64,000 nt of DNA from Candidatus Woesebacteria bacterium GW2011_GWF1_31_35. GTDB taxonomy: Bacteria; Patescibacteriota; Microgenomatia; UBA8517. The first letter of the stretch is position 1. Each line of letters opens with the position of its first letter. Where the stretch lies: the NCBI GenBank assembly GCA_001029755.1, contig CP011214.1, positions 200,595 through 264,594 on the forward strand. Reading direction: 5' to 3'. The notes under the pieces are model-generated. The model saw only the letters and a program-made list of their open reading frames with translations. It did no database searches and was not told where the DNA came from. Below, piece after piece: positions 6,748 through 42,849 of this stretch. A program made the position numbers and the translations under genes.

Positions 6748-6759
6748 ATTATAAATAAT

Positions 6760-7395
6760 ATGAAAAATAAATTATCAACAATAGTAATAATATTAGTAAC
6801 GATAATTTTAGCTGGAGTTGCAATTTTTACTGCCATTAGATTGTATCAAACAAGAAATACTTCTGTTGCACCTAACGCCCCTTCAAGTAAACCAGAAGCA
6901 TATGGAGGGTCTTGTAGTTTATCTTTTACCTTAGCAACACCTACCAGTACAGCCTCAGGTACAGCTATAGCAACTGCTACAAGTACGGCCACATCGACTG
7001 CTACATCAACTTCAAGAGCGACAAGTACTGCTACATCAACTGCTACATCAACTTCAAGAGCGACAAGTACTGCTACATCAACTGCTACAGCTACAGCAAC
7101 AAGTACAGCCTCAGGACAACCAAACTCTTGTAATGGAACTTGTGGATCAAATAGTAATTGTAGTTCTGGACTATTTTGCTATTCAGGTTATTGTAGAAAT
7201 TCTTCTTGTCCTACAGATACAGATTGTGTGTGTAATGGAACAGCTACACCAACAAGTACATCTACTTCTATTGCACAAGGACCAACATCAACATCAGAGC
7301 CACAACTCCCAGAAGCAGGAACATCATGGCCAACAATTCTTGGTACTGGATTTGGAATATTTATTATTCTAGGTGCACTTCTATTGGCACTTTAA
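6760..7395 (+). CDS. Thr/Ser-repeat surface protein with Cys-rich module and C-terminal LPEAG plus hydrophobic anchor
   Basis: N-terminal TM, (ATSTATSTATSTSR)n repeats, Cys-rich block (CNGTCGSNSNCSSGLFCYSGYCRNSSCPTDTDCVC), then LPEAG and a hydrophobic tail. Confidence 0.55.
   Translation: MKNKLSTIVIILVTIILAGVAIFTAIRLYQTRNTSVAPNAPSSKPEAYGGSCSLSFTLATPTSTASGTAIATATSTATSTATSTSRATSTATSTATSTSRATSTATSTATATATSTASGQPNSCNGTCGSNSNCSSGLFCYSGYCRNSSCPTDTDCVCNGTATPTSTSTSIAQGPTSTSEPQLPEAGTSWPTILGTGFGIFIILGALLLAL
6991..7100 (+). repeat. Tandem 42-bp in-frame direct repeat (acaagtactgctacatcaactgctacatcaacttcaagagcg) inside the surface-protein gene
   Basis: Two perfect copies (7021-7062 and 7063 onward) and one partial copy, encoding TSTATSTATSTSRA units. 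Confidence 0.6.
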
Positions 7396-11003: not shown

Positions 11004-12139
11004 CAATTTTCATTCCACTTATTATTTTAATAATATATTTTCTTTCTTCTGCTGGAAAAACACCATTTAATCACTTTACATTGCTTGCAGATTCTTTCTT
11101 AAAAGGACATTTATATATCGAAGGGGATTATCCTTGGCTCGAAAAAATTCCCATTGGTGACAATAAATTTTATGTAGCTAATCCTCCAATGCCAGCTATT
11201 CTCGCTATACCTTTTGTTTTTTTCTCAAATAAAAATTTCCCTCAACAGTATATTTCTCACATATTAGGTATGGGAATAATCGGATTAACAATGATTATGG
11301 CATATAGAATTAAAAAGAAATTAAGTTTAATGATTTGGTCAGGATTATTAATTGGACTAGGTTCCATAGTATGGTTTTTATCTTCAGTCGGTTCAGTTTG
11401 GTATCTTGGTCAAATTACCTCAGCATTCTTTTTAACTTGGGCATTAGTCGAAATATTAGGTAAATCAAGGCCAATATTACTAGGAATATTATTGGGCGCT
11501 ACCTTTCTTTCAAGAAGTCATGTTGCCTTAACTTTTCCGTTTATTGTCTTTATGAATTGGGAAAAGTTTAAAAATTTAAAACATTTAAACATATTAATTT
11601 TAGTTTTTTCAATCTTTGCCAGTTTTGGATTTTGGTATAACTTTGTAAGACTTGGAAATCCTTTTGACAATGGTTACAATCTGATTCCTGATGTCAGTAT
11701 ATCATCTTGGTTTGCTCAGGGTCTTTGGAACCCAATATATATACCCAAAAACTTTGATATATTATTTCTAAAAATGCCAGTAATTACAAATACTTTTCCT
11801 TATATTGTCCCATCTCTTGCTGGGATGTCTATAATTCTTACTACTCCTGCTTTTATTCACTCTTTCTTTGCTTCAATAAAAGATATCATCACAAAATTAT
11901 CGTGGATTTCCATTTTAATAATATTATTTATAGTATCCTCGCATGGTGGAACAGGATTCACACAATTCGGATATCGCTTTGCGGTTGACTTTTACCCCTT
12001 TTTAATGTTGCTTACAATTAAGGGTGTGGCCGAACACAACGGACCAAAATGGCACCACTGGTTGTTACTTATTATTTGTATAATTGTAAACACTTGGGGA
12101 GTATTATTTATTAATAAATTTGGCTGGGTAGGTTGGTAG
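10967..12139 (+). CDS. GT-C family membrane glycosyltransferase, tandem paralogue
   Basis: 390-aa polytopic protein with TQFGYRFAVDFYPFLM...NTWGVLFINKFGW, paralogous to the preceding ORF. The two overlap by 37 nt in different frames. Confidence 0.45.
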   Translation: MGSYMGNKFRLVTIFIPLIILIIYFLSSAGKTPFNHFTLLADSFLKGHLYIEGDYPWLEKIPIGDNKFYVANPPMPAILAIPFVFFSNKNFPQQYISHILGMGIIGLTMIMAYRIKKKLSLMIWSGLLIGLGSIVWFLSSVGSVWYLGQITSAFFLTWALVEILGKSRPILLGILLGATFLSRSHVALTFPFIVFMNWEKFKNLKHLNILILVFSIFASFGFWYNFVRLGNPFDNGYNLIPDVSISSWFAQGLWNPIYIPKNFDILFLKMPVITNTFPYIVPSLAGMSIILTTPAFIHSFFASIKDIITKLSWISILIILFIVSSHGGTGFTQFGYRFAVDFYPFLMLLTIKGVAEHNGPKWHHWLLLIICIIVNTWGVLFINKFGWVGW

Positions 12140-14003
12140 CGGTTTTTAAAATTAAAATTCCATTCTTATCATAAACAACCGGATAATCAAATCTTAATTT
12201 TTCTTCATTTATTAGATATTCTCTTCTTTCCCATCCACTTATATAAATGTAATTTATCCCAAATTTCTTTATCAGCTCTTTGTATCCATCTCTTGCATCG
12301 AAAATTGCCAAGATCGCCATTTCTTTATCAGTCGTATCAGTAATCCCGTGTGTCCACAAATAACCACCAAATCCTAGAAATATTTTACGACCAGATAAAG
12401 CAGTTATTATATTATTTGAGTTTCTTGCCGTTAGAAAAATCTCATTGGGACGACTGATCTCTCTAATTTCTTCGGCAATTATTAAATCATTTCTTTTAAA
12501 TATTCCACCGAGCATCCTTGGATCATTAATTGAAATTAGAATACCGGTAACGACTGATAAAAATAAAAAGCAGTAACCTAAAATTTTAACTACAATTATT
12601 TTACTTTCAATCAATTTAATTATTAAATATGAAGCTAAAATTGAAATCATTATATAAGGGTACAAAACAAATCTACTGTTGTCCCAAACATATGGCTGAA
12701 AGATAATTATATTAGCTAGAAATATAATAAATACGTTTACTAAAATAATGTTTCTATTTTTAAATATCTTTTTAAAAAACAACATTACTGATATTATTGA
12801 CCCAAACAAAAAAGGAATACCAAAATTAGTCAAATAGAAAAACAATTTATTATAAGTTCCATCAACAGGCGGCCATTCTGAAAAAGAAAATCTAATAAAG
12901 CTTTTAGATCCTAATGAAGTGAATATTACAGGTAAGATAAAGGCTCCGGAAACAATAAATATTAATAAGCCATATTTAATCCAAAAAAATAATTCTGATA
13001 TTTTTTTAGCTTTTATAGTTTCCGATACAACAACAAACAGAAGCGCTAAAGCAAAAACCAAAAAGGCATAAATATTTGCATATGGTAATAAACCTGCTAT
13101 AAATGCGCTTATAGCAAAGATTCTTAAATTTGTCTTATTGTTTATTAAAAGTATTAATAAATATGTAGCAAAAATCCAAAGTGGTACCCCCACAAGCAAA
13201 GTTCTTTGGGCCATAAGCATTTCGGCAAATATACCAGCATACCCAACGCCTAACTGAGGAAGGTAGGAGAAACGGGTCGTGGCATTGATATAAGTAGACA
13301 AAGGTAATTCATCTAATATAGGTTTTGTAAAACCTAATCCGCCATTAAAAAGAAACAAGAATACTGAAAGATAAGATGCCCTATTATTATTTAATATTTT
13401 AAAAGCCAATAAATAGAGGGAATTAACTAAGAGTAAACCAAAAATGGTAGAGGGAATAATTAGTGAATATCGTAATCCAGAACCTAAGACTAATAATTGA
13501 GCTGAAACAAAGTCAGCAACAAAATGATAATTAATGGTTTTAAAAGAAGCAATTGGGTTGATCGGAGGAAAATTATCTCCATAGGCGAAATTACTAATTA
13601 ACCCTAAATGAAAGGGTAAATCACCACTCGTCGAGGGACTACCGCTTAAATAAGATTCACCAGATTTTAAATGAGTTTGACTTATCACCAAACCAAAACA
13701 GATTAGCCAAAAAATATTAAACAATATATATCCTTTATCAAAACTTATTTTTAATTTGTAATTCTTAAACGTAAATAAATAAAGAGATATTCCACTAAGA
13801 AGCGTTATCCAAGTTGACATTTTGATAGAAAAGATATGACTCAAATAAAAAGATAATAATGCGTTTATTAAGATTCCGGTAAGCATAGAAAAAAATAACA
13901 ATTCTTTTGTATTTAAATGCTTTTGTTTAAAAAGTTTAAACAAAACAGTGAAACCTAAACAAAATGAGGATAGAAAATAAATAGATATATATACAAAACT
14001 CAT
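12111..14003 (-). CDS. Large polytopic membrane protein with C-terminal extracytoplasmic domain (putative GT-C glycosyltransferase)
   Basis: 630 aa: about 12 predicted TM helices followed by a roughly 170-aa soluble domain. It sits among the GT-C genes and the LCP gene. Confidence 0.35.
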   Translation of the reverse strand: MSFVYISIYFLSSFCLGFTVLFKLFKQKHLNTKELLFFSMLTGILINALLSFYLSHIFSIKMSTWITLLSGISLYLFTFKNYKLKISFDKGYILFNIFWLICFGLVISQTHLKSGESYLSGSPSTSGDLPFHLGLISNFAYGDNFPPINPIASFKTINYHFVADFVSAQLLVLGSGLRYSLIIPSTIFGLLLVNSLYLLAFKILNNNRASYLSVFLFLFNGGLGFTKPILDELPLSTYINATTRFSYLPQLGVGYAGIFAEMLMAQRTLLVGVPLWIFATYLLILLINNKTNLRIFAISAFIAGLLPYANIYAFLVFALALLFVVVSETIKAKKISELFFWIKYGLLIFIVSGAFILPVIFTSLGSKSFIRFSFSEWPPVDGTYNKLFFYLTNFGIPFLFGSIISVMLFFKKIFKNRNIILVNVFIIFLANIIIFQPYVWDNSRFVLYPYIMISILASYLIIKLIESKIIVVKILGYCFLFLSVVTGILISINDPRMLGGIFKRNDLIIAEEIREISRPNEIFLTARNSNNIITALSGRKIFLGFGGYLWTHGITDTTDKEMAILAIFDARDGYKELIKKFGINYIYISGWERREYLINEEKLRFDYPVVYDKNGILILKTATNLPSQIY

Positions 14004-15052
14004 AAAATATGATTATTTAACCACTCTTGAAAATCTTTCCAACTACCAGACTTTGGAATAAATACATATTGGTAATCATACTTTTTTAAATTTTGAGAGA
14101 TTTCTAAAAACTTTTCTGGGATTGAAAAGAAATTTATTTTGTTTCTAGATTCAAAGACCAATCTTCCCAATATTAGTAAAGACTTATTATCTAAATTAGT
14201 TTCTACATGAGAAAAGGTAATATCATAAATTTCTTTTAATTTTAAGGGGTTTAATATTATTTCTTTTGATAAAACTTTTTCCTTTATAGCACTAATAACT
14301 TTTTGTTGACGAATTTCTCTTGCCAAATCTGTTCCTTCCAGACCTTCTGAATTTCTACTTCTCACAAATTTTAATGCAGTTTCTCCATCCATTTTAGTAA
14401 CACCTTTTTCAAAAGAAACAGTTTCATATCTACAAGCATATGTTTTGGTTAAAGATAAATTTTGCTTATCATCTTCACATAGATCATTCTCTTTACCCGC
14501 AATTGGATACTTTGAATCTGTAAAGGAATTTTCAACCATCACATTTATTCCACCCAATGTATTTATCAAGTCTTTAAACAAAGAAAAATCTACAACTACT
14601 GTGTATGAAATTGGTATACTTGTTATTTCCTCTATACTTGTATTAACAAGTTCGAAATTATTATTAGATTTTTGTTTTCCCCAATAGTAAGCACTATTTA
14701 ATTTAGCGCGAATTGCAGGTACCCAAACATCTCTAGGAAGAGATAGTATATTTACTTTTTTTGAATTTTGGGAAAGAAATGCAATCATCATTGTATCTGT
14801 TAAATCAGGAGCCGTGTGGCCTTCTCCACCTTTACCTAAAATTAAAATTGATGTGATTCCATTTGAAGATTTAATATTTCCATAATCAAATTTAGAAAAA
14901 AAGATTGATCTTAAAACTAAGAAAAAGATAATTGGCAAAACTACCAAAATGACTAAAAATACCAGGACAACTTTATACTTACCCATGTTACTATTGTATT
15001 TGTTATGAACAACACAAGCAATATTATCAAAAGAGCCAATCAATTCACTCAC
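14000..15052 (-). CDS. LytR-CpsA-Psr (LCP) family cell-wall glycopolymer ligase
   Basis: N-terminal TM then ILILGKGGEGHTAPDLTDTMMIAFL...NILSLPRDVWV...DFSLFKDLINTLGGINV...DGETALKFVRSR, the LCP catalytic-domain pattern. The real start is probably the internal MGKYKVV. Confidence 0.8.
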   Translation of the reverse strand: MSELIGSFDNIACVVHNKYNSNMGKYKVVLVFLVILVVLPIIFFLVLRSIFFSKFDYGNIKSSNGITSILILGKGGEGHTAPDLTDTMMIAFLSQNSKKVNILSLPRDVWVPAIRAKLNSAYYWGKQKSNNNFELVNTSIEEITSIPISYTVVVDFSLFKDLINTLGGINVMVENSFTDSKYPIAGKENDLCEDDKQNLSLTKTYACRYETVSFEKGVTKMDGETALKFVRSRNSEGLEGTDLAREIRQQKVISAIKEKVLSKEIILNPLKLKEIYDITFSHVETNLDNKSLLILGRLVFESRNKINFFSIPEKFLEISQNLKKYDYQYVFIPKSGSWKDFQEWLNNHIL

Positions 15053-15100
15053 CTGTGGACCAAAAATGAAATTGAGTTTGTTACAAACAATATAAAGAAA

Positions 15101-15856
15101 ATGAGTTACAAAGAAATGGGTGCATTTATATCAAGAACTTCTCCATCAATTCAATCAAAGGTTCGATTTCTACCAATCCAACAAAAGGTTAATAAATATA
15201 AAATAAATCAAAAATTTTTTACCAAATGGTCTGAACCAATGGCTTATATATTAGGATTCATAACAGCAGATGGAAATATATGCAGGACAGGAAATTCACA
15301 CATGATCCAAATTGCCTGTGATGACAAAGATATAATAGAAAAAATCAAAATTGAATTATCTTGTGATACACCAATACAGATACGATCAAGACTAAATGGA
15401 AAATCATCCTATCAACTTAGATTTTCAGATAAACATATTTATCAAAATTTAATTAAACTTGGAATAACACCGAGAAAAAGTTTAACTATTAAACCACCTA
15501 TTAAAATACCTCATGTGTTTATTAATGATTATATTAGAGGTTTTTTTGATGGGGATGGTAGTGTTTGGATATCGAAGAGAACCAGACAAGAAAGGCTTGT
15601 TAGTGTTTTTTATACTGCAAGCATAAAAATGATTAAATTTATATTTGAAATAATAAAAAATAACTTTCCATTATTTACCGGAAAAATACAAAGAATACTC
15701 ACACCAAAGAAAAATAGATTCTATTATTCTATAACATTGGGACACAGGGATTCATTACTTTTGTATAAGTATATGTATAAAGGATCAAAAATATTTTCAA
15801 ACAGGAAACATAATATTTTCAAAAAAATATATGACAATCAATTTATCAGAGCTTAA
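15101..15856 (+). CDS. Free-standing double-motif LAGLIDADG homing endonuclease
   Basis: Two LAGLIDADG motifs (AYILGFITADGNI and IRGFFDGDGSVWI) in one chain. The ORF is open from 15005, but that start overlaps the convergent LCP gene, so the ATG at 15101 is preferred. The 3' end overlaps the pcrA start by 26 nt in another frame. Confidence 0.7.
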   Translation: MSYKEMGAFISRTSPSIQSKVRFLPIQQKVNKYKINQKFFTKWSEPMAYILGFITADGNICRTGNSHMIQIACDDKDIIEKIKIELSCDTPIQIRSRLNGKSSYQLRFSDKHIYQNLIKLGITPRKSLTIKPPIKIPHVFINDYIRGFFDGDGSVWISKRTRQERLVSVFYTASIKMIKFIFEIIKNNFPLFTGKIQRILTPKKNRFYYSITLGHRDSLLLYKYMYKGSKIFSNRKHNIFKKIYDNQFIRA

Positions 15857-24797: not shown

Positions 24798-24818
24798 TTA
24801 GATAGTATTTGACAAAAT

Positions 24819-24853
24819 ATAAAAATATATCTATATTACCCATAGTTTAGTTA
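24819..24853 (+). promoter_or_regulatory. sigma-70-like promoter TTGACA-N17-TATATT
   Basis: Near-consensus -35 and -10 hexamers with 17-bp spacing, upstream of a 56-aa ORF (24876-25046) and of metG. Confidence 0.35.
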
Positions 24854-25087: not shown

Positions 25088-26521
25088 TTGGTCAAAATAC
25101 TTACTTCGAGTTATACTACAAGTATGAACAAGAAAAAATATTATGTAACCACAGCCATTGACTATACTAATGACGTTATTCATATTGGTCATGCCTACCA
25201 AAAATTATTAGCAGATGTATTGGCTCGTTATCATCGTCAAGTTGGAGATAAAACCTATTTTTTAACAGGTACTGATGAACATGGACAAAAAGTTGAAAAG
25301 AGTGCCAAAGAAAAAGGAATACAACCCAAAGAATTTGTCGACAAAATTGCAATTGAGAATAAAAATGAGTGGAACAAGTTAAATATTTCATTTGACAGAT
25401 TTATTAGAACCACAGACGAAGATCATATTAAGTTTGCTCAAGAATTCTACTTGAAGGCAAAGGCTAATGGAGATATTTATAAAGCTAAATATGAAGGTTT
25501 TTATTGTGAAGGTTGTGAATCGTTTAAAGATGAATCTGAATTAATCAACAAGAGATGCGAATTTCACTCCAATAAAGAAATTCAAGAAGTTGTAGAGGAA
25601 AATTATTTTTTCGCTCTTTCAAAATATCAAAAATTTTTAGAAAATCATTTCAAAGAACATCCTGAATTTGTTTGGCCAGAGTCAAAGAGAAAAGAGATTT
25701 TATCTTTTATCAAATCTGGTTTAAAAGATTTTTCAGTAAGTCGTCAGAATGTATCATGGGGAATTCCAGTTCCTGATGACCCAACTCACACAATTTATGT
25801 TTGGTTTGATGCTTTGATCAATTATTTAACATATGGTATTGAAGAGAATTGCTGGCCAGCAGACGTTCACGTTCTTGGTAAAGACAATCAAAGATTCCAT
25901 GCTATTTATTGGCCAGCAATGTTAAAGTCCGCGGGGTATGAACTTCCAAAAACAATCTTGGTACATGATTTCATTTCACTTAATGGTCAAAAGGTAAGCA
26001 AGTCACTTGGAAACGTTATTCTTCCGACAGAATTGATAAATAAATTTGGAATCGATGGAACTAGATACTTTTTTCTAAGATATGGGCCACTGACAAATGA
26101 TATTGACATAACACTAGAAAAAATAACTGAAAGTTATAACGCTGATCTTGCCAACGGTCTTGGAAATTTAGTCTCAAGAGTTGCCAAACTTTGTGAGAAA
26201 ATTGGGTTTGGAGGCATAAGTAAATCTACTAAATTTATTGGAAAGGTTGATGATTCTATTGAAAGTTTTCGATTTGATAACGCATTGGCAATTATTTGGG
26301 ACAAGATTAAAGAAATTGATGTATCAATCAATAAAGTTGAACCATGGAAAATAACAGATGAGAAAAAACTAACGGGTTTTCTACAAAAAACTTGCAGCCA
26401 AATTATTTCAATTGCCTATTCCCTTACGCCCTTTTTACCAGACACATCTAAAAAAATGCTAGATATCTTTTATCTTGATAAAATAAAATCTTCAGAAGGA
26501 TTATTTCCTAGACTAGGATGA
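25088..26521 (+). CDS. metG: Methionyl-tRNA synthetase (minimal form, no C-terminal tRNA-binding domain)
   Basis: HIGH motif TNDVIHIGHAYQ, zinc knuckle CEGCESF...CEFHSN, KMSKS variant KVSKSLGN. The likely start is the internal ATG at 25124 (MNKKKYYVTT). Confidence 0.85.
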   Translation: MVKILTSSYTTSMNKKKYYVTTAIDYTNDVIHIGHAYQKLLADVLARYHRQVGDKTYFLTGTDEHGQKVEKSAKEKGIQPKEFVDKIAIENKNEWNKLNISFDRFIRTTDEDHIKFAQEFYLKAKANGDIYKAKYEGFYCEGCESFKDESELINKRCEFHSNKEIQEVVEENYFFALSKYQKFLENHFKEHPEFVWPESKRKEILSFIKSGLKDFSVSRQNVSWGIPVPDDPTHTIYVWFDALINYLTYGIEENCWPADVHVLGKDNQRFHAIYWPAMLKSAGYELPKTILVHDFISLNGQKVSKSLGNVILPTELINKFGIDGTRYFFLRYGPLTNDIDITLEKITESYNADLANGLGNLVSRVAKLCEKIGFGGISKSTKFIGKVDDSIESFRFDNALAIIWDKIKEIDVSINKVEPWKITDEKKLTGFLQKTCSQIISIAYSLTPFLPDTSKKMLDIFYLDKIKSSEGLFPRLG

Positions 26522-28020
26522 TTAAAAAAATGAGAAAGTACATTTTAAGACACGAAAAAGGAGTTTTAAGAGCTCTTGAGATTTTACCTGGTTTTTTTTC
26601 TTGGAATGTTATTTTATTTCCTTATTGGGGAATATTAGTAATTCCTAATGTTGTAGCCTATTTTATTCTCCTTTTTAATATTTATTGGTTTTATCAATCT
26701 TTTTTAATAGCAATTACATCAATTATTTCACATATCAGAATTCAGGCATCTATTGATTATGATTGGATGGAAGATTTAAAAAGTTTTCCTGACTGGAAAG
26801 AAGTTAATCATGTAATAATAATTCCAACTTATAAAGAACCTCTTCATATTTTAGAAAGAACAATCAATTCTTTAATTAATCAAACATTTCCCACAAAACA
26901 AATAAGTGTAATTTTGGCAATGGAAGAAAAAGAAGATATAAATGTTCGGAACTCTAAGTTCGAAACTTTAAATTCCAAATTTGGAGGAAATTTTAATCAT
27001 TTTTTGACAACAGTGCACAAATTGAAAAAGGGTGAAATATCTGGTAAGGCTTCAAATGAAAGATTTGCGGCAGTTTGGTTTAAAAAACGCTTCATTGATG
27101 AAGCTAAATTAAATATAGATTATTTTACAGTTACTAGTTGTGATGCAGATCATAAATATCACCCAAATCATTTTGCTTGTCTTACTTTTAAATTTTTAGA
27201 TAATCCCAAAAGGTTTCGTATGTTTTGGCAACCCGCAGTAATGTTTTACAACAACATTTGGGAACTACCAGCAATAACCAGAGTTCCTAATACGTTTGGA
27301 TCAATTTGGAATTTATCACAACTCCCCCGTAAGGACAGACTAATTAATGCACAAAATTATTCTCTTTCATACAAACTTTTAGACGAAGTTGATTATTGGG
27401 ATGCAGACAAAATTCCTGAGGATTGGGGTATATTTTTTAAAGCTTATTACAAAGTTAAAGGAGGCTTAGAAGTTGAACCTATTTATCTTCCACTTCATGC
27501 GGACGCTGCCCAATCTACATCTTTTTGGAAAACAATTAAGGTTCAATATGAACAATTTAAAAGATGGGCTTGGGGGGCATCTGATGATTCTTGGATTATT
27601 AAAAATTATTTAATAGATAGTGAGATTCCTTTTTGGGATAAAACAACAAGATTAATGCACGTTATCTCATCTCATTTTTTGTGGCCTGTTAATTGGTTTA
27701 TGATAACTATTGGTCTTACTATTCCGACACTTCTAAATCCAGCATTCGGTAGAACTACTTTGGGTTATATGGTTCCAAAATTATCATCCCTAATTCTAAC
27801 CATTGCTCTTTCATTTCTAATTGTTTTACTTTTTATAGATTATGTTTACAGACCAAAAAGAACACAAAAAGTTTCAATTTGGAGAATAATAATTTCTCCT
27901 TTTGAATTCGTCTTAATGCCTATTGCAGGATTTATCTTTACTGCTCTACCAGGAATTGATGCACATACAAGACTTATGCTTGGAAAATATATTGAATATA
28001 AAGTTACCGAAAAAGTATAG
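26518..28020 (+). CDS. Membrane-bound family-2 glycosyltransferase (processive synthase-like)
   Basis: N-terminal TMs, then IIIPTYKEPLHILERTINSLINQTFP and a DxD motif (TSCDADHKYHP), then a C-terminal TM bundle. Confidence 0.6.
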   Translation: MIKKMRKYILRHEKGVLRALEILPGFFSWNVILFPYWGILVIPNVVAYFILLFNIYWFYQSFLIAITSIISHIRIQASIDYDWMEDLKSFPDWKEVNHVIIIPTYKEPLHILERTINSLINQTFPTKQISVILAMEEKEDINVRNSKFETLNSKFGGNFNHFLTTVHKLKKGEISGKASNERFAAVWFKKRFIDEAKLNIDYFTVTSCDADHKYHPNHFACLTFKFLDNPKRFRMFWQPAVMFYNNIWELPAITRVPNTFGSIWNLSQLPRKDRLINAQNYSLSYKLLDEVDYWDADKIPEDWGIFFKAYYKVKGGLEVEPIYLPLHADAAQSTSFWKTIKVQYEQFKRWAWGASDDSWIIKNYLIDSEIPFWDKTTRLMHVISSHFLWPVNWFMITIGLTIPTLLNPAFGRTTLGYMVPKLSSLILTIALSFLIVLLFIDYVYRPKRTQKVSIWRIIISPFEFVLMPIAGFIFTALPGIDAHTRLMLGKYIEYKVTEKV

Positions 28021-28023
28021 TTT

Positions 28024-28968
28024 TTATTTCAAATCTTTATAATACTCAATAGTCTTTTGAAGCCCATCAATTAAATCAACTTTTGGTTCCCATTTTAAAA
28101 TACCTTTTGCTTTTGTAATATCAGGACATCTTTGCATTGGGTCATCGGGTCTAAATGAATTTGAGAAAATTACTTCAGATTTTGAATCAGTAAGTTCAAT
28201 AATTTTATTAGAAAGGTCACCAATCTTAAATTCATCTGGATTACCTAAATTAAATATTTCTCCCCTAGTTCCATCCGTAAACATCGCCTTCTTAATCCCG
28301 CTAACCAAATCCGTAATATAACAAAACGACCTTGTTTGGCTTCCGTCACCATCAATTTTTATTGGTAATCCATTAATTGCCCAGTTAATAAAATTGCTAA
28401 TTACTCTCCCATCATCTTTTCTCATATTTGGTCCATATGTATTAAAAATTCTAATTATTCTTGCATCAATTCCATATTTATTTAAAAATACATAAGTTGC
28501 AGCTTCTGCAAACCTTTTGCTCTCATCATAACAACTTCTTGGTCCAAATGAATTTGCATTTCCCCAATAGATTTCTTTTTGAGGATGTTCAAGTGGATCA
28601 CCATAGATTTCTGATGTTGAAGCAATTAATACTTTAGCTTTAATTTCTTTTGCTATATTTAATATATTTAAAGTCCCCAAAGAATTAGCTAAAAGTGTTT
28701 CTTCAGAATTGTTTTGATAATCAATAGGTGAAGCTGGAGAAGCTAAATGAAAAATATATTTTAAGTTTAAATAATCAAATGTTAAAGGTTTGATAACATC
28801 AGCCTCAATAAATTCAAAGTTTGGATTAGTTAATAGACTTTTAATGTTTCCCCTATTTCCAGTAATTAAGTTGTCAAGGCAAACTACTGCAAAACCATCA
28901 CTGAGTAAACTATTACAAAGATGGCTTCCAATAAACCCCACCCCACCTGTTACCAAGATTTTTTCCAT
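28024..28968 (-). CDS. UDP-glucuronate decarboxylase (UDP-xylose synthase), SDR family
   Basis: ILVTGGVGFIGSHL Rossmann motif; catalytic SCYDESKRFAEA (YxxxK); overall UXS-like. Confidence 0.75.
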   Translation of the reverse strand: MEKILVTGGVGFIGSHLCNSLLSDGFAVVCLDNLITGNRGNIKSLLTNPNFEFIEADVIKPLTFDYLNLKYIFHLASPASPIDYQNNSEETLLANSLGTLNILNIAKEIKAKVLIASTSEIYGDPLEHPQKEIYWGNANSFGPRSCYDESKRFAEAATYVFLNKYGIDARIIRIFNTYGPNMRKDDGRVISNFINWAINGLPIKIDGDGSQTRSFCYITDLVSGIKKAMFTDGTRGEIFNLGNPDEFKIGDLSNKIIELTDSKSEVIFSNSFRPDDPMQRCPDITKAKGILKWEPKVDLIDGLQKTIEYYKDLK

Positions 28969-30465
28969 ATGTTAGAATTATATAGCATGAACAGAATTAA
29001 AAAAATAATCGCTAAAATTGATACTCCACTTTGGCTTGAAATTCTTTTTGCAGTATTACTTATTCTTCGTATTCCATCATTTTTTGAACCCTATTATTAT
29101 GGCGATGAAATGATTTATTTGACACTAGGAGAAGGAGTAAGACAGGGTGTTCCACTTTATCTTGGTCTTCACGACAATAAGCCTCCCCTACTTTATTTAA
29201 CTGCAGCTGTAGCTGGAAACCTATTTTTCTTTAAAGTAATTTTAGCTTTCTGGTCTCTTATTACGGTTTACGGTTTTTGGAAATTAATAAGTTCAATTTT
29301 TCCCGAGAAAAAAACTCTACATAAAATTTCAACTATTATATTTGGGCTTCTTACTACTTTACCACTTTTAGAAGGAAATACAGTAAATGCGGAATTATTT
29401 ATGATAGGACCAATTATTTTTGCATTTTGGATACTTTTAACCAAAAAAAATAACTTTAAAAACGTATTTATTTCAGGAGGCTTAATTTCAATAGCAGCAC
29501 TTTTTAAAATTCCAGCTGCTTTTGATATTTTAGGAATAGTTGCCTTCTGGGCTATATTTGTTAAAAAAGATACTTTTTTTGAGTTTATTAAAAAATGTAT
29601 TTACTTAAGTTTAGGATTCATTGTTCCAATTGGCCTTACATTTATTTGGTATTATTTTGCTGGAGCATTGAAAGTATATTTAGTTGCGGCGTTCTTACAA
29701 AACTTTGGCTACGTTTCAAGTTGGAGACCGACAGATATCGCTAAACCATTTTTAGTTAAAAATGCCCCTCTTCTAATCCGGGCTGGAATTTTCGTTTTAG
29801 GTATTGGGGTATTATTTATTTCCAAGAAAAAATTTTCCAAAAACTTTATATTTGTTTCAGCTTGGCTTCTGGCTACTCTTTTCGCAGTCACCTTATCAGA
29901 GCGCCCTTACCCACATTATTTTGTACAATCAATTGCCCCTGTATCAATTTTATTGGGCATGTTGATAACCCTAAAAACAATTGAGCAAAGTTTGGTTGTA
30001 ATTCCATTAACTCTAGTTTTTTTCGTACCTTTTTATTACAAATTTTGGTATTACCCCACAAGTACTTATTATTTACGATTTATCGACTTTGTAAGTGGAA
30101 AAATTACAAAGGATGTATATTTTTCTAAGTTTTCTCCAAATGTAAATATGAATTATAAATTAGCTGATTTTTTAATTAAGTCATCAAATAAAGACGATAA
30201 AATATTTATTTGGAGTAACGATGCCCCTGCAATTTATTCTCTTTCTAGAAGGTTGCCTCCTACTAAATATGTTGCAGATTACCACTTTTTAGATTTTTCA
30301 AATAAAGAATATGTATTTGATGTTCTTTCAAAAAATAAACCTAAATTTATAATAATCACACCAAACTCTTTTAGATTTCCAGAACTTTCTGATTTTGTCC
30401 AAAAAAATTACTATTTAATTTCTGAGGTTGATTCCTCCCAAATATGGCTTTATATAAAAAAATAA
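28921..30465 (+). CDS. GT-C family glycosyltransferase (ArnT/PMT_2-like) with C-terminal soluble domain
   Basis: Polytopic N-terminal half containing the YYYGDEMIYLTLGEG loop (a DE motif typical of lipid-linked-donor GT-C enzymes), followed by a roughly 130-aa C-terminal domain. Confidence 0.5.
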   Translation: MASNKPHPTCYQDFFHMLELYSMNRIKKIIAKIDTPLWLEILFAVLLILRIPSFFEPYYYGDEMIYLTLGEGVRQGVPLYLGLHDNKPPLLYLTAAVAGNLFFFKVILAFWSLITVYGFWKLISSIFPEKKTLHKISTIIFGLLTTLPLLEGNTVNAELFMIGPIIFAFWILLTKKNNFKNVFISGGLISIAALFKIPAAFDILGIVAFWAIFVKKDTFFEFIKKCIYLSLGFIVPIGLTFIWYYFAGALKVYLVAAFLQNFGYVSSWRPTDIAKPFLVKNAPLLIRAGIFVLGIGVLFISKKKFSKNFIFVSAWLLATLFAVTLSERPYPHYFVQSIAPVSILLGMLITLKTIEQSLVVIPLTLVFFVPFYYKFWYYPTSTYYLRFIDFVSGKITKDVYFSKFSPNVNMNYKLADFLIKSSNKDDKIFIWSNDAPAIYSLSRRLPPTKYVADYHFLDFSNKEYVFDVLSKNKPKFIIITPNSFRFPELSDFVQKNYYLISEVDSSQIWLYIKK

Positions 30466-30809
30466 AATTTGGACCAGAATTTGAGAGGCTTCCTTTAAAA
30501 AAGCTTTTTGTTTATTCATTTGTTATTAACTTGATTACAATTCTGTTAGGATTATTGGCAAAGTTAATACTTCCTCCTGAAATTCCACTTTTTTATGGGC
30601 TACCTCAAACATCAGAACAATTAGCCAAATCAATTTTTATAATTCTTCCAGCAACAACCGCGCTTTTGTTAACCTTGGTTAATGCAATTTTATCAATTAA
30701 TATTGGGGGGGCATATTTGAAGAAAACTTTGGCGTTTACATCAATTGCAATAAGTTTACTTGCATTAATTGGAACATTTAAAATTATCTTTTTAGTAGGA
30801 TCAATTTAA
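30444..30809 (+). CDS. Small membrane protein
   Basis: 121 aa with three or four TM helices. Confidence 0.3.
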   Translation: MALYKKIKFGPEFERLPLKKLFVYSFVINLITILLGLLAKLILPPEIPLFYGLPQTSEQLAKSIFIILPATTALLLTLVNAILSINIGGAYLKKTLAFTSIAISLLALIGTFKIIFLVGSI

Positions 30810-30816
30810 TTTAATA

Positions 30817-31842
30817 ATGGCTAAACTAATTAGTCTTCTTTTTATACCACTTTTCTTTTCATTTTTGATTTCATATTTTATTACTCCAATAGTAATTAGG
30901 TTTGCAAAGAAACTTAAAATTATGGATGACCCAAGAGGAAAAACTCATCCTAAAATAATTCATGATAAACCCACTCCAAGAGGTGGTGGAATTCCTGTAT
31001 TTATCGCAATTTTAATTGCATCACTTGTTTTTATCCCAATAGATAAACATCTAATTGCAATTTTAATTGGAGCATTTGTCATCTTTGTAATGGGATTTTT
31101 AGATGATAGATATAACCTAAACCCATATTTAAGACTTGCAATTGGAATGGTTGCTGCTTTAATTCCAATATTATCAGGTATAGGAATATCATTTTTAACT
31201 AATCCTTTTGGAGGAATACTTGATCTATCAAATCCCCTTATTTCTGACCTTTTCGCTCTTATTTGGATAGTTTTTATGATGAACATGTTAAATATGGGGG
31301 CTAAAGGAATTGATGGGCAACTTTCAGGAGTTACAGTTATTTCGGCAATTACAATAGCAGCCCTTTCTTTTTATTATTCAGCAGACATTACCCAATGGCC
31401 AGTAATAATTTTAACAGCAGTAACTGCTGGGGCATTTTTAGGTTTTTTCCCTTGGCATAAATTCCCTCAAAAAATTATGCCAGGATATGGTGGCGCAACA
31501 CTTGCTGGATATATGCTAGCTATTGCATCAATTCTTTCTACAACTAAAGTGGGGACATTAATTGTAGTTTTAGGTATTCCACTAATTGACACGGGTTATT
31601 CAATTATTAGAAGAATTCTTTCAGGAAAATCTCCTGTTTGGGGAGATAGAGGCCATCTTCATCATAAACTTTTAGATTCTGGTCTTTCTAAAAAACAGGT
31701 TTCACAAGTCTATTGGTCACTAACAGCAATCCTTGGAATTTTAGCTTTAAATTTGAATGCTACTAATAAGTTATATACAATTGTGGGTGTTGTGTTTCTA
31801 ATAGGAGGAATTATTATATGGTTAACATATCGCTCCAAATAA
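30817..31842 (+). CDS. Polyprenyl-phosphate HexNAc-1-phosphate transferase (MraY/WecA family)
   Basis: FLDDRYNLNP (the DD motif) and NMLNMGAKGIDGQLSG (the N..N..DG.DGL motif) are hallmarks of the WecA/MraY superfamily. At 341 aa it is WecA-sized. Confidence 0.7.
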   Translation: MAKLISLLFIPLFFSFLISYFITPIVIRFAKKLKIMDDPRGKTHPKIIHDKPTPRGGGIPVFIAILIASLVFIPIDKHLIAILIGAFVIFVMGFLDDRYNLNPYLRLAIGMVAALIPILSGIGISFLTNPFGGILDLSNPLISDLFALIWIVFMMNMLNMGAKGIDGQLSGVTVISAITIAALSFYYSADITQWPVIILTAVTAGAFLGFFPWHKFPQKIMPGYGGATLAGYMLAIASILSTTKVGTLIVVLGIPLIDTGYSIIRRILSGKSPVWGDRGHLHHKLLDSGLSKKQVSQVYWSLTAILGILALNLNATNKLYTIVGVVFLIGGIIIWLTYRSK

Positions 31843-32756
31843 TCCGTATAGCAAGACCAGTCCATTGGATTAAAAATTTTGCCCTCTTTGCTGCTTTATT
31901 TTTAACTGGAACATTATTTGAAAAGGGATTATTTTTAAATGTTATTTATGCTTTTATTGCTTTTTCATTAGCAACCTCAGCAACTTATATCTTTAACGAT
32001 ATCATGGATGCTAAAAAGGACAAACTTCATCCAATAAAAAGATTAAGACCAATTGCCTCAGGTAAGCTTCCTATCCCTATTGCAATTTTGGAATTTATAT
32101 TTTTAGTTTTTTTATCTTTAACAATAGCTTCATCTTTAAATCATCTTTTGTTTGTATTAATAGTAAGTTATTTGATAATTCAAACTCTTTATAGTTTGGG
32201 TCTAAAAAATATTCACGTAATTGATATTTTAATAATTGCTACAGGTTTTATAATGCGCGTTTATGCAGGAGCATTTGTAATAAACGCCCACCTTTCAGTT
32301 TGGTTTCTGCTTTGTGTAGTTTCGGCTTCCCTATTTCTTGCAGCTGGAAAAAGAAGAGCAGAAATTAACCTTTTGGAAGCAGTTGATGGAGGAACAAGAA
32401 AAAGTCTTTCTAAATACTCTAAAGAACTTCTTAATTCCTATGTAACCATGTTTGGAAATGCTACTTGGATGAGTTGGAGTCTTTATACTTTTTTTGAGAG
32501 TCCAAAAGCTTCATTAAATTTTTGGCTGGTATTAGCAGAACTTTCAAGAGCAACAACTATCAGTAAACTTATGATGTTAACCATTCCCGTTGTAATTTTT
32601 GGAATTATGCGTTATGAAGCCTTAATCTTTGAAGGGAAATCAGAAGCACCCGAAAAACTTCTTTTAACTGATAAGGGACTCTTAATTGGAGTAACACTTT
32701 GGATAGTTTTAATTTACTGGATTATTTACTCAGGAGTGTCAGTTGCTGGAATCTAA
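31818..32756 (+). CDS. UbiA-family polyprenyl-phosphate phosphoribosyltransferase-like enzyme (DPPR-synthase-like)
   Basis: NDIMDAKKDKLHPIKRLRPIASG matches the NDxxDxxxD motif and the downstream HP.KR.RPIASG block of decaprenyl-phosphate 5-phosphoribosyltransferase-type UbiA enzymes. Second Asp-rich region AGKRRAEIN. Confidence 0.6.
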   Translation: MVNISLQIIRIARPVHWIKNFALFAALFLTGTLFEKGLFLNVIYAFIAFSLATSATYIFNDIMDAKKDKLHPIKRLRPIASGKLPIPIAILEFIFLVFLSLTIASSLNHLLFVLIVSYLIIQTLYSLGLKNIHVIDILIIATGFIMRVYAGAFVINAHLSVWFLLCVVSASLFLAAGKRRAEINLLEAVDGGTRKSLSKYSKELLNSYVTMFGNATWMSWSLYTFFESPKASLNFWLVLAELSRATTISKLMMLTIPVVIFGIMRYEALIFEGKSEAPEKLLLTDKGLLIGVTLWIVLIYWIIYSGVSVAGI

Positions 32757-33563
32757 AATTTTCTTTGTAAATTCTCCTAAAATCCAACCTCCAATATTGT
32801 TTATATTAATTTTATACCACTTTCCCGTTTCATCAGTTTCTAATATTTCATATATTTCACCCGTCTTAACTTGAGTGACTTCCGGAAAATTAAGTCCAGG
32901 CTTTTCTCTAACTCTCAAAAATCCAGTTCCTGTATCTAATATTTCAATTTTTTCTTTTGGGACAGGGATTTCTGTTGGTATAGGAACAATTGATTTGGCC
33001 AACTTTATCGAAGCAGTTAATTTATAACCCTTAACAACTCTAATTGGAAGTGATTTTTCAAGGTATTTTTCAGCCGAAATAACTAAATTATGATCCCCTG
33101 CTGGAATTTTAATTCTTAAAGGTGTGTAACCATACACTTTACCATCAATTATTACTTGAGCATTATCAGGAACTGAAACAACAGTGACAAGACCATCTTC
33201 TCCATTAATTTTTTCAAATGAAACAACCACCCCACTTGAATATTCTTCTGTTTCTTTAAAAGTTCTTTTTATTATTGTTTTAATTCCAGATTCTAAATTA
33301 ATTTTTGTTTCATAATCATCCAAAACCTGCCCTTCAATTTGAACAGGTTTAACTCTAATTGTTATTTCTCCAGGTTCTAGGTTTGCTTCATATGGGGTTT
33401 TTCCTACTTCTTTACCATCTATATAAACTATGGAGGTAGGTTCTGATTCAACTAAAATACCTGCTTCTTGAGGTTTAAAAGCTCCTAAAAAGAGAAGGAT
33501 AGAAGCTCCAATTATTGATAATCCAATCAAAGCTAAAAAGATTACAATTATTTTTCTCTTCAT
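32739..33563 (-). CDS. PEGA-domain secreted protein
   Basis: Signal/anchor, then repeated LEPGEITIRV and IPAGDHNLVISAEKY beta-sandwich PEGA-like motifs. Confidence 0.4.
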   Translation of the reverse strand: MKRKIIVIFLALIGLSIIGASILLFLGAFKPQEAGILVESEPTSIVYIDGKEVGKTPYEANLEPGEITIRVKPVQIEGQVLDDYETKINLESGIKTIIKRTFKETEEYSSGVVVSFEKINGEDGLVTVVSVPDNAQVIIDGKVYGYTPLRIKIPAGDHNLVISAEKYLEKSLPIRVVKGYKLTASIKLAKSIVPIPTEIPVPKEKIEILDTGTGFLRVREKPGLNFPEVTQVKTGEIYEILETDETGKWYKININNIGGWILGEFTKKILDSSN

Positions 33564-33639: not shown

Positions 33640-33712
33640 GACCAGGTGGTGAAGTGGCTAACACGGCGGTCTGCAAAACCGCTACTCGTGGGTTCAAATC
33701 CCACCCTGGTCT
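33640..33712 (+). tRNA. tRNA-Cys (anticodon GCA)
   Basis: Cloverleaf: acceptor GACCAGG/CCTGGTC, anticodon stem GCGGT/ACCGC with loop CTGCAAA, T-arm GTGGG-TTCAAAT-CCCAC. CCA is not encoded. Confidence 0.8.
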
Positions 33713-33773
33713 CACTATCATAAAAATCTCCTAAAATTTGACTTTTGGGTACTTCATGGTATAGAATAGCCAC

Positions 33774-42210: not shown

Positions 42211-42849
42211 ATGGAGTTGGTAAACCTACTAAATATCATTTCAGTAATTTTTGAAAAATGGGGCATTTTAATTATTTTTTTTGGATCTTTAATAGAGATT
42301 ACCCCTTTTGGTTGGGCCGTTCCTGGAGGAGTAATTTTAGCAGTTGCAGGTTTTCTTTCAAATAATAATCAAAATTTATCAATTATTCCAATTATTATGA
42401 CTGGAACATTTGGAGCCTGGATAGCTTTGATGCTTGCCTATATCTTTGGATTAAAATCTGGCATGTGGTTAGTTAAAAAACTTCATCAAGAAAATAATGC
42501 AAGGTTTGCAAAATCATTATTACAAAAAAATGGAGGTGTAATACTTACAACCTCAATGCTAGCTAACTTAACCAGGTTTTGGATTTCATATATCGCTGGA
42601 GTTGAAAAATATAGTTTTCTAAAATTTAATATTTATGCTTTCTTAGCTTCATTAGGGTGGGTTTCTGTAATGACACTTTTGGGATTTTTTGCAGGTTACG
42701 AAAAAGAAAATTTGATAAATATTACAAAAAGTATTGGGATAATAACTTGGATATTACTTTTAATTGCTATTTTTGTAATTTATAAAGCTATCAAAAAAGA
42801 ATATAAACACTTCAAAAAAGACCTTCCTCATGATGAAATAGTCAAATAA
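42211..42849 (+). CDS. DedA/SNARE-associated family membrane protein
   Basis: Polytopic; LIEITPFGWAVPGGVIL resembles the DedA re-entrant loop motif. Confidence 0.5.
   Translation: MELVNLLNIISVIFEKWGILIIFFGSLIEITPFGWAVPGGVILAVAGFLSNNNQNLSIIPIIMTGTFGAWIALMLAYIFGLKSGMWLVKKLHQENNARFAKSLLQKNGGVILTTSMLANLTRFWISYIAGVEKYSFLKFNIYAFLASLGWVSVMTLLGFFAGYEKENLINITKSIGIITWILLLIAIFVIYKAIKKEYKHFKKDLPHDEIVK

Follow-up and report, generated by a model that had tools for sequence, protein, structure and literature searches.

A run of co-directional genes in Candidatus Woesebacteria bacterium GW2011_GWF1_31_35, a tiny uncultured groundwater bacterium, is interpreted here with moderate confidence as an operon for a cell-envelope glycan, passed down vertically in the Microgenomates group of CPR bacteria, which would use a ribofuranose donor in the six-step scheme given below. 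The last gene of the operon functionally resembles the ribose-phosphate-loading enzyme of the tuberculosis bacterium, and it is therefore probable that a lipid-linked five-carbon sugar goes into a sugar polymer on the surface of these bacteria. DPPR synthase as an enzyme type and its annotation on this protein were already known; the lineage-wide operon around the DPPRS-type UbiA protein is new, no description of it having been found in the literature searched. An earlier sequence-only reading had proposed a lipid-linked pentose pathway for this region. The DPPRS-type UbiA protein in a conserved operon favors that proposal, and its arguments from UDP-xylose synthesis and from mycobacterial arabinose fell away.

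Gene content and layout

Open reading frames and domain profiles (Pfam and NCBIfam) were evaluated across the whole 64-kb stretch of DNA, referred to as the window. The features of the region are as follows.

25088-26521, + strand: methionyl-tRNA synthetase, MetRS (NCBIfam metG TIGR00398, 456 bits)
26518-28020, + strand: membrane GT2 glycosyltransferase (Pfam PF13632, Glyco_trans_2_3, 30.1 bits)
28024-28968, - strand: UDP-glucuronate decarboxylase (UDP-xylose synthase, UXS; 321 bits to human UXS1)
28987-30465, + strand: GT-C fold glycosyltransferase, 492-498 aa (predicted structure)
30444-30809, + strand: small 3-TM membrane protein, 121 aa (recurrent gene order)
30817-31842, + strand: WecA/TagO-like transferase of the MraY superfamily (Pfam PF00953, Glycos_transf_4, 83 bits)
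31818-32756, + strand: UbiA-superfamily polyprenyl-phosphate 5-phosphoribosyltransferase, 312 aa (NF008978)
32739-33563, - strand: membrane-anchored protein with two PEGA domains and SH3_3 (Pfam PEGA 72 bits, SH3_3 44 bits)

All genes named in the sequence-only reading were recovered as open reading frames at the same coordinates; the 121-aa frame between the GT-C and WecA genes had been overlooked. The operon order is metG, GT2, UXS (on the opposite strand), GT-C, small 3-TM protein, wecA-like, and ubiA-like. Overlapping stop and start codons join metG to GT2, GT-C to the small frame, and wecA to ubiA. The metG gene heads the co-directional run, with its stop codon and the start codon of GT2 overlapping in ATGA, and the 3' end of the wecA-like gene extends 25 nt into the UbiA gene. 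The start of the GT-C gene is placed at 28969 in the NCBI annotation and at 28921 in the mechanical open reading frame. Of the promoter-like matches in the region, the best was located at 24809-24837, and their count was not above chance.

The UbiA-family protein

The UbiA homologue is, on the evidence of its sequence, a DPPR-synthase-type polyprenyl-phosphate phosphoribosyltransferase and not a quinone, heme, or chlorophyll prenyltransferase. It scored 226.8 bits against NCBIfam model NF008978, which has a curated cut-off of 207, and fell below the cut-offs of two other DPPRS models (NF008977, 217.7 bits against 234; NF008976, 162.5 bits against 474). The best non-DPPRS prenyltransferase model in NCBIfam reached 52.5 bits, which leaves a lead of at least 170 bits over other UbiA families. 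The structure of Rv3806c of Mycobacterium tuberculosis (8j8j) was matched with 132 bits (E 3e-37), the first 200 aligned residues being about 38% identical. The block that the sequence-only reading had likened to DPPR synthases, NDIMDAKKDKLHPIKRLRPIASG, corresponds to residues 60-82 of the protein, and the likeness was borne out by these matches and by the contact residues.

The published PRPP and phosphoribose contact positions of Rv3806c are all kept in the window protein, the sole change listed being Y157 to F144. The Mg2+ ligands N73 and D77 of the NDxxDxxxD motif are matched by N60 and D64; the pyrophosphate-binding K/R cluster R22, K87, R90, and K143, together with Y138, by R13, K74, R77, K130, and Y125; and the phosphoribose-specific contacts K28, Y70, Q135, and Y157 by K19, Y57, Q122, and F144. 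The contact residues are at least 90% conserved across 81 Microgenomates sequences. The phosphoribose contacts of Rv3806c are absent from other (prenyl-transferring) UbiA enzymes, and Phe at the position of Y157 is found in some mycobacteria too (PMC10994848).

It is extremely improbable that the protein is an ordinary aromatic or lipid prenyltransferase (MenA, UbiA, heme O synthase, or GGGP-type). Pfam assigns only the generic UbiA family and JGI labels homologues as 4-hydroxybenzoate polyprenyltransferase, both of which would suit that reading, but the phosphoribose-specific contacts are conserved and every other prenyltransferase model scored about 52 bits or less against 227, 218, and 163 bits for the DPPRS models. 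The grouping with menaquinone or ubiquinone enzymes that would have spoken against the sequence-only reading was thus not observed. The NCBI annotation already gives the identical protein the name polyprenyl-phosphate 5-phosphoribosyltransferase.

The accompanying membrane enzymes

The membrane GT2, WecA/MraY-family, and further GT-C enzymes named in the sequence-only reading were all upheld. The GT2 protein matched PF13632 weakly, yet above the cut-off (30.1 bits against 27); its GT-A domain is preceded by two TM helices at the N-terminus and followed by others at the C-terminus. Its DxD (209-211), ED (301-302), and QFKRW (346-350) motifs are present, and across 69 homologues D209xD211, E301-D302, and Q346xxR349W350 show conservation of at least 90%. 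The top Foldseek matches were hyaluronan synthases and BcsA, with TM-scores of at most 0.39 for a poor model (pLDDT 63). The protein is therefore assigned provisionally to the cellulose/hyaluronan-synthase-like type, the Pfam match being marginal and the structural model of low confidence.

The WecA-like protein scored 102.7 bits against the WecA model TIGR02380, far under its equivalog cut-off of 326, and 52.8 bits against the mraY model (cut-off 192). In addition to the PF00953 match, the motifs D96-D97, D166-G167, and HLHH (H280-x-H282-H283) are at least 90% conserved. It is a member of the MraY superfamily that appears closer to WecA than to MraY, and is predicted to be a polyprenyl-phosphate N-acetylhexosamine-1-phosphate transferase.

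No Pfam match was obtained for the 492-aa product of the GT-C gene; its predicted model (pLDDT 89.8) has a GT-C fold. ArnT was among the best structural matches and gave the longest alignment, and the model was not specifically Emb/Aft-like. The WWDxG signature of oligosaccharyltransferases (STT3/PglB/AglB) was not found in the C-terminal periplasmic domain, so that the oligosaccharyltransferase identity named in the sequence-only reading as contrary evidence did not materialize. The protein is a candidate extracytoplasmic pentofuranosyltransferase, and it is gene order that suggests it may consume the UbiA product.

The small 3-TM protein carries an LPPxxPxxY loop in which P48 is invariant. 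Neither 36 members nor their profile gave a match in Pfam or the PDB, and none to the GtrA/SMR families was obtained. Within the recurrent gene order it ranks among the best-conserved components, and it is a candidate flippase or accessory subunit.

The UXS insert

The assignment of the opposite-strand gene as UXS with an intact YxxxK motif was confirmed by the match of residues 2-311 to the human UXS1 structures 4gll and 2b69 (321 bits, E 9e-95; 132 bits for the next structural family and about 89 bits for ArnA), with GGVGFIG (GxxGxxG) at residue 8 and YDESK at residue 147. The gene occurs in only 10 of 80 related loci, lies between GT2 and GT-C in 7 Woesebacteria loci, and is absent from the closest complete relative and from L001/L004. 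Its product, UDP-xylopyranose, serves Leloir enzymes and by pathway logic does not feed into a lipid-linked pentofuranose derived from PRPP (PMC11127046). A variable insert on the opposite strand that is biochemically unrelated to the PRPP route gives no support to the lipid-linked pentose hypothesis, for which the sequence-only reading had invoked UDP-xylose synthesis. UXS is proposed to be an optional add-on in some Woesebacteria that supplies UDP-xylose for extra Leloir-type decoration.

Conservation of gene order

The comparison set comprised 80 species-level Microgenomates genomes (80 loci) with UbiA identities down to 42%, and the order GT2, (GT-C), small 3-TM protein, WecA-like, UbiA recurred among them. 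The WecA-like gene is directly upstream of UbiA in 77 loci; 70 have the small 3-TM gene immediately before the WecA-like gene, 68 contain GT2, and in 58 the cluster has MetRS upstream of it. GT-C is present in 53 loci, consistent with an operon in which the UbiA homologue is usually accompanied by such an enzyme; its absence from the other 27 (for example, Collier- and Daviesbacteria types) indicates that it is not an obligate partner. The small 3-TM protein always abuts WecA-UbiA, whether or not GT-C is absent. Median identities within Woesebacteria-type loci were 69% for GT2, 65% for UbiA, 62% for WecA, 45% for MetRS, and 82% for GroEL; the higher conservation of GT2, UbiA, and WecA than of the adjoining MetRS argues for a core function.

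Absent partners and the identity of the sugar

Neither the window nor the 8 kb around the UbiA gene in the 80 genomes yielded a DprE1/DprE2-type or ORF13-type epimerase, which leaves the arabinose analogy of the sequence-only reading unsupported and makes ribofuranose the simplest (default) sugar over arabinose. A phosphoribose phosphatase (HAD/PRP or PAP2) was likewise not found in the window and did not recur within 8 kb in the 80 loci, and a fused HAD/PRP domain is absent from the 312-aa protein, which consists of the UbiA domain only; a phosphatase gene may lie elsewhere in the genome. Recognized flippase families (MATE, GtrA/SMR) were detected neither in the window nor in the 8-kb surroundings of the 80 loci; the place expected for a transporter is occupied in 70 of these by the 121-aa protein that matches no family. 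No gene for PRPP synthetase was recognized in the window.

Proposed pathway and alternatives

In the proposed scheme, the UbiA-like enzyme would transfer 5-phosphoribosyl from PRPP to polyprenyl phosphate at the cytoplasmic face, as Rv3806c does, a step predicted from family membership and active-site conservation. A putative phosphatase would then act, and polyprenyl-P-ribofuranose would be moved to the outer face, the small 3-TM protein being only a candidate for this transport. Outside the membrane, GT-C may use the lipid-ribofuranose donor to place pentofuranose on a glycan or protein, as its fold and gene order suggest. The translationally coupled WecA-like enzyme would form the polyprenyl-PP-HexNAc primer of the acceptor glycan, the cellulose-synthase-like GT2 may supply or extend a beta-linked backbone, and an LCP ligase encoded at 14000-15052, 12 kb from the operon, could attach the PP-linked product to peptidoglycan. 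There is precedent for systems of PPPRS, transporter, and GT-C (PMC11127046).

It is unlikely that GT-C does not use the UbiA product, and that GT2, the small protein, and GT-C instead form a Gtr/Arn-like module in which a polyprenyl-P-hexose or -xylose is made from a UDP-sugar, flipped, and transferred, with the phosphoribosyl lipid serving another GT-C or another purpose. The three genes are contiguous, UXS lies among them in the 7 Woesebacteria loci, and the ArnT matches of the GT-C model fit such a module. However, the GT2 has QxxRW, and its matches are to PF13632 and HAS/BcsA, not to the architecture of GtrB/ArnC/DPM1; 70 of the 80 loci lack UXS; and the small protein, with no GtrA/SMR match, keeps its place beside WecA-UbiA where GT-C is missing. 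A mycobacterial-type arabinan pathway, in which DprE1/DprE2-like enzymes elsewhere in the genome would convert the lipid-ribose to polyprenyl-P-arabinofuranose and the GT-Cs would be arabinofuranosyltransferases, is considered quite unlikely; it shares its entry enzyme with Mycobacterium, and that enzyme is accompanied, as in arabinogalactan synthesis, by WecA, GT2, GT-C, and LCP. In M. tuberculosis H37Rv, too, dprE1/dprE2 are not known to be adjacent to ubiA, which counts in its favor.

The acceptor could also be protein rather than wall polysaccharide, with pili or sortase-anchored Ser/Thr-rich surface proteins O-glycosylated with pentofuranose. The segment 2804-7395 encodes proteins resembling PilN/PilO together with surface proteins that are rich in Thr/Ser/Pro and end in LPxxG-TM tails; it is adjoined by four more GT-C-like genes, and TfpW places D-Araf on the group IV pilin of Pseudomonas aeruginosa (bioRxiv 10.1101/2020.04.19.049825). 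This is distinctly improbable, since the pilus genes are 20 kb away and a glycan that is lipid-PP-linked or secreted is what the tight coupling to a synthase-like GT2 and a primer enzyme of the WecA type suggests. Beyond the favored ribofuranose scheme, it is tentatively suggested, as a possibility that we hold in some doubt, that the operon encodes a core, vertically inherited, Microgenomates-wide wall-glycopolymer pathway with a WecA-primed anchor and a PRPP-derived polyprenyl-phospho-pentofuranose donor. This would be a minimal, independently organized counterpart of mycobacterial arabinogalactan synthesis outside Actinobacteria, in which the small 3-TM protein replaces known flippases and the enzymes are under stronger constraint than MetRS.

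Comparison with known systems

The operon may be regarded as a variant of known pentofuranose glycosylation systems (the mycobacterial DPA pathway; Kelly et al. 2024), its function being inferred. With the DPA pathway it shares a UbiA enzyme of the Rv3806c family with the same Mg2+ ligands, pyrophosphate cluster, and phosphoribose contacts; the accompanying WecA-type primer enzyme, GT2, GT-Cs, and LCP ligase of arabinogalactan synthesis; and strong conservation, as for a core wall function. In contrast to the mycobacterial pathway, a nearby Rv3807c-type PAP2 phosphatase, DprE1/DprE2, and GtrA-like Rv3789 are missing from the window, GT-C is not specifically Emb/Aft-like, WecA is joined to ubiA in one operon by overlapping codons, and the host is a small-genome CPR bacterium (contig 826 kb).

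The ORF15-ORF14-ORF12 locus of Citrobacter youngae O1/O2 (Kelly et al., PNAS 2024, PMC11127046) likewise combines a PPPRS of the same family with GT-C, and the predicted route from PRPP through polyprenyl-P-Ribf and flipping to extracytoplasmic transfer, with ribofuranose as the default where no epimerase is present, is that of such three-component systems. The window PPPRS differs in having no fused HAD/PRP phosphatase, an unrelated conserved 3-TM protein is found instead of a MATE transporter, and WecA and a synthase-like GT2 are also present; in contrast to a variable, serotype-diversifying add-on, the window operon is lineage-wide, highly conserved, and next to metG. Unlike the ArnT/Arn pathway (undecaprenyl-P-L-Ara4N to lipid A), the SDR of the window is a true UXS by its scores, ArnB/ArnC/ArnD homologues are absent from the window, and the GT2 is not ArnC-like. 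Since these bacteria are not expected to have an outer membrane, a lipid A acceptor is unlikely.

As far as we are aware, CPR/Patescibacteria envelopes are almost uncharacterized and most lineages, Microgenomates included, have no cultured members. The combination of a WecA-type initiator and a phosphoribosyl-lipid synthase in one operon predicts that the cells carry a ribo- or other pentofuranose surface glycan, so that lectins or probes specific for pentofuranose could serve to label or enrich them. If this is correct, PRPP-derived lipid-linked pentose donors would not be confined to the Mycobacteriales wall and to variable decoration of O-antigens but would also be a core trait in a large uncultured radiation, and the small unannotated 3-TM membrane protein is nominated as a new component of such pathways.

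Flanking PEGA protein

The PEGA protein noted beside UbiA in the sequence-only reading was confirmed by Pfam (PEGA twice, and SH3_3). It has one N-terminal TM helix, is probably wall-associated, and is convergent with the operon, a position that it also occupies in 59 of the 80 loci.

Operon structure and genomic setting

Sequence comparison supports the placement of a predicted polyprenyl-phosphate 5-phosphoribosyltransferase, a putative GT-C enzyme and a WecA-type phosphotransferase together in one conserved operon. All genes named in the sequence-only reading were recovered with the same coordinates; one further ORF, which that reading had missed, encodes a 121-aa protein with three transmembrane (TM) helices. 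The features concerned are as follows.

28024-28968, minus strand: short-chain dehydrogenase/reductase, UDP-glucuronate decarboxylase (UXS)
28921-30465, plus strand: GT-C fold protein
30444-30809, plus strand: 121-aa, 3-TM protein
30817-31842, plus strand: WecA-like protein
31818-32756, plus strand: 312-aa UbiA homologue
33640-33713, plus strand: tRNA-Cys (GCA), between the PEGA gene and an M23 peptidase gene, the only Rfam/ARAGORN match in 64 kb

Stop and start codons overlap at three junctions (metG/GT2, GT-C/small ORF and wecA/ubiA), which is consistent with an operon. Scans for promoters and terminators of the region gave matches no better than chance, and the Rfam scan of the window, with the tRNA as its sole match, contained no riboswitch. 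A 108-aa antisense ORF inside the WecA gene (30960-31286) was judged spurious. The window has a G+C content of about 30% and its genes include those for DnaA/DnaN, GroEL/ES, MetRS, ValRS, FemAB-like enzymes, MurJ, pilus parts and many membrane glycosyltransferases. Its NCBI lineage runs through the Patescibacteria group to the Microgenomates group, and identical copies of the operon proteins are also deposited under Candidatus Woesebacteria bacterium GW2011_GWC1_30_29 and GW2011_GWE2_31_6.

The UbiA homologue

The likeness to decaprenyl-phosphate 5-phosphoribosyltransferase (DPPR synthase) proposed in the sequence-only reading was borne out: the protein is predicted to be of this type, with NCBIfam and PDB scores far above those of other prenyltransferases. 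NCBIfam model NF008978 (decaprenyl-phosphate phosphoribosyltransferase) gave 226.8 bits against a cut-off of 207, two sister models gave 217.7 and 162.5 bits, and a HAD-UbiA fusion model of the Citrobacter ORF15 type gave 152.7 bits, covering the UbiA half of the window protein. The top non-DPPR prenyltransferase model reached 52.5 bits, and the ChlG, UbiA, haem O synthase and MqnP models at most 33 bits each. The sole strong match in the PDB was M. tuberculosis Rv3806c (8j8j; 132 bits, E 3e-37), compared with 31 bits for an archaeal UbiA in the same search.

Contact residues of Rv3806c were transferred to the window protein through a HMMER alignment. The Mg2+ ligands N73 and D77 (PMC10994848) correspond to N60 and D64, and the pyrophosphate cluster R22, K87, R90 and K143, plus Y138 (PMC10994848), to R13, K74, R77, K130 and Y125. 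Residues K28, Y70, Q135 and Y157, which contact the ribose or 5-phosphate and lack conservation across the UbiA superfamily at large, map to K19, Y57, Q122 and F144; Phe also replaces Y157 in some mycobacteria (PMC10994848). The mapped positions are at least 90% conserved across 81 Microgenomates sequences, and the majority are invariant among 38 diverse UbiA representatives. The family comprises 1,476 clusters at 50% identity (E below 1e-30). An identical protein at NCBI already bears the name of a DPPR-synthase-type enzyme, so that the enzyme call is correct but not new. A literature search of incomplete coverage found nothing linking CPR/Patescibacteria to DPPR synthase; the annotation itself is already public.

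Gene neighborhood across genomes

One genome per species was scanned with a 9-sequence UbiA alignment, used in place of the 38-sequence diverse profile, which was too divergent for this purpose. Exact-sequence look-ups with the window protein and a 100%-identical entry returned no contig, and a relative with a 76%-identical UbiA (L001) was used for locus comparison. UbiA relatives are encoded in at least 588 genomes, and the best 80 of these loci (L004-L083) are without exception of Microgenomates type (Woese-, Ames-, Collier-, Levy-, Davies-, Gottesman-, Pace- and Cerribacteria). A number of these MAGs (L005, L006, L012-L014, L016, L017 and others) carry the title 'uncultured Gammaproteobacteria bacterium' or 'uncultured Pseudomonadales bacterium', evidently a mislabelling by the submitters, as both the genes present and the identity with Woesebacteria proteins indicate. 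Neighbors were counted by ORF calling and BLASTP clustering, with a cross-check by tblastn.

Table. Neighbors of the UbiA gene among the best 80 loci
WecA-like gene, directly upstream of UbiA: 77/80
Small 3-TM protein gene, directly upstream of WecA: 70/80
GT2, about 500 aa: 68/80
PEGA gene, downstream and convergent: 59/80
MetRS, upstream: 58/80
GT-C family of the window: 53/80
TatD-like gene (sequence reading), between MetRS and GT2: 53/80; absent from that place in the window

The TatD-like ORF, of about 273 aa, lies between metG and GT2 in most non-Woesebacteria Microgenomates (L020-L083). It was considered as a missing phosphatase or epimerase and set aside, its sequence, judged by eye rather than by family search, reading as a TatD-type hydrolase. 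No recurrent cluster resembling DprE1, DprE2, another epimerase, PAP2 or HAD was present among the 80 loci, and none of these was found in the 64-kb window.

Table. Median identity of window proteins to 15 Woesebacteria-type loci
GroEL: 82%
GT2: 69%
UbiA: 65%
WecA: 62%
GT-C: 53%
MetRS: 45%
PEGA: 39%
Small protein: 37%

With identities above that of MetRS, GT2, WecA and UbiA are under stronger constraint than this essential tRNA synthetase, which is easier to reconcile with a core function than with a variable add-on for antigen diversification.

Glycosyltransferases and neighboring proteins

Catalytic acidic residues of GT-C enzymes sit after the first TM helix, and in the putative GT-C protein an invariant Y38-G39-D40-E41 follows this helix. 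The protein had no Pfam or NCBIfam match even at E up to 10, nor did its family sequence profile match the PDB; its identity was found solely by fold comparison. The sequence-only reading had allowed that such proteins might instead align to oligosaccharyltransferases. The protein lacks a WWD motif and so does not represent a specific oligosaccharyltransferase, nor is it closely paralogous to the window's other GT-C-like genes.

The GT2 protein passed Pfam PF13632 narrowly (30.1 versus 27), and conservation of its motifs D209xD211, E301-D302 and Q346xxR349W350 reaches at least 90% across 69 sequences. Its sequence had no match in the PDB, and homologues carry the JGI label cellulose/PNAG-synthase-like. 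The AF2 model is poor (pLDDT 63) because the underlying alignment is shallow, none of its members falling below 71% identity with the query. Foldseek ranked hyaluronan synthases, the minimal cellulose-synthase-like PcManGT and BcsA highest for this model (TM at most 0.39), so the modelled resemblance to HAS/BcsA is suggestive only. With moderate confidence, the protein is assigned as a cellulose-synthase-like membrane GT2 and not as a GtrB/ArnC-type lipid-sugar synthase.

Membership of the WecA-like protein in the MraY/WecA superfamily, as first read, was confirmed (PF00953, 83 bits); its score with the WecA model is twice that with the MraY model, where it falls far below the cut-off. The small protein consists of three hydrophobic helices with a conserved LPPxxPxxY loop in which P48 is invariant. 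It matched no Pfam family and no solved structure; a GtrA/SMR-type flippase was considered and dropped since no family matched, and one member had a weak DUF1648 match (E 0.0017). Because its position beside WecA-UbiA is constant, it might, speculatively, be a candidate flippase or subunit. Besides PEGA, the PEGA protein has an SH3_3 domain and a single N-terminal anchor helix.

UDP-glucuronate decarboxylase

The first identification of UXS holds with high confidence: GxxGxxG and YDESK are intact, and the protein aligns over its full length to human UXS1 (321 bits, E 9e-95), with the next structural family at 132 bits. Its start codon (28968, minus) abuts the NCBI-annotated GT-C start (28969, plus) with zero intergenic bases, so that the UXS gene interrupts, in antisense orientation, an operon whose other genes all run the same way. 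The gene occurs in 10 of the 80 related loci, in seven of them, all Woesebacteria, in the same opposite-strand position. The closest relative with a long contig (UbiA 76% identical) lacks it, and in relatives without it (L001) GT2 and GT-C are about 20 nt apart. The sequence-only reading had counted UDP-xylose synthesis in favor of a lipid-linked pentose route. This argument falls away, since Xylf and Araf come from epimerised lipid-linked ribose and not from UDP-xylose (PMC11127046), and the gene is thus no evidence for a PRPP route. More likely, some Woesebacteria use UXS to supply a Leloir-type xylosylation.

Proposed pathway and comparison with known systems

By analogy with Rv3806c and the three-component systems (PMC11127046), PRPP and polyprenyl phosphate would yield polyprenyl-P-ribose-5-P, the 5-phosphate would be removed by a phosphatase, the lipid-linked sugar would be flipped to the outer face, and a GT-C enzyme would there transfer the pentofuranose onto a glycan. 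The anchor of that acceptor would be made by the WecA-like enzyme, with a backbone perhaps supplied by GT2, and the LytR-CpsA-Psr (LCP) ligase at 14000-15052 could join it to peptidoglycan. As no epimerase lies nearby, ribofuranose would be the simplest product.

Judged from predicted functions, the operon would work like the entry step of the mycobacterial DPA pathway and the Citrobacter-type three-component systems. Unlike either of them, it contains no fused or adjacent phosphatase, no MATE or GtrA transporter and no epimerase; it joins UbiA to WecA, to a GT2 of synthase-like type and to an uncharacterised small membrane protein, and it is a lineage-wide, strongly conserved trait. On the M. 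tuberculosis H37Rv map, the GT-C gene aftB, ubiA and the GT2 gene glfT2 are likewise adjacent, a suggestive parallel.

Other envelope and possible secretion genes

Further genes of the window include the following.

4251-7395, plus strand: three consecutive predicted surface proteins with Thr/Ser/Pro-rich tracts
7392-14003: first GT-C island
14000-15052, minus strand: LCP protein (Pfam 105.9 bits), adjoining the GT-C island
15005-15856, plus strand: free-standing LAGLIDADG-type homing-endonuclease-like ORF (Pfam LAGLIDADG_3, E 9e-9)
42211-42849, plus strand: DedA/VTT-domain protein
51662-52789, minus strand: Wzy_C/O-antigen-ligase-like 375-aa membrane protein
58731-63954, minus strand: 931-aa membrane protein with a C-terminal M23 peptidase domain, adjoining a TraG/VirB4-like P-loop ATPase

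The surface proteins lie right behind PilN/PilO-like genes (2804-4034) and right ahead of four GT-C-like genes; two of the three end in LPESG or LPEAG plus a hydrophobic helix, with the look of a sortase-type anchor, and they are plausible O-glycosylation targets. Within the GT-C island, GT87 and PMT/PMT_2/PMT_4TMC domains occur together in an 809-aa protein, putative GT-C proteins of 406 and 390 aa are mutual paralogues (29% identity, E 5e-25) with no Pfam match, and a 630-aa putative GT-C protein had no match. An LCP family protein would suit a role in anchoring a lipid-PP-linked glycopolymer on peptidoglycan. The LAGLIDADG ORF is flanked by the LCP gene and a UvrD/PcrA-like helicase. The DedA/VTT-domain protein, whose family is implicated in polyprenyl-phosphate recycling, and the Wzy_C-like protein represent two further envelope-glycan genes. 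The M23 protein and the TraG/VirB4-like ATPase look like a type IV secretion/conjugation-like module near the replication origin (dnaA at 54995).
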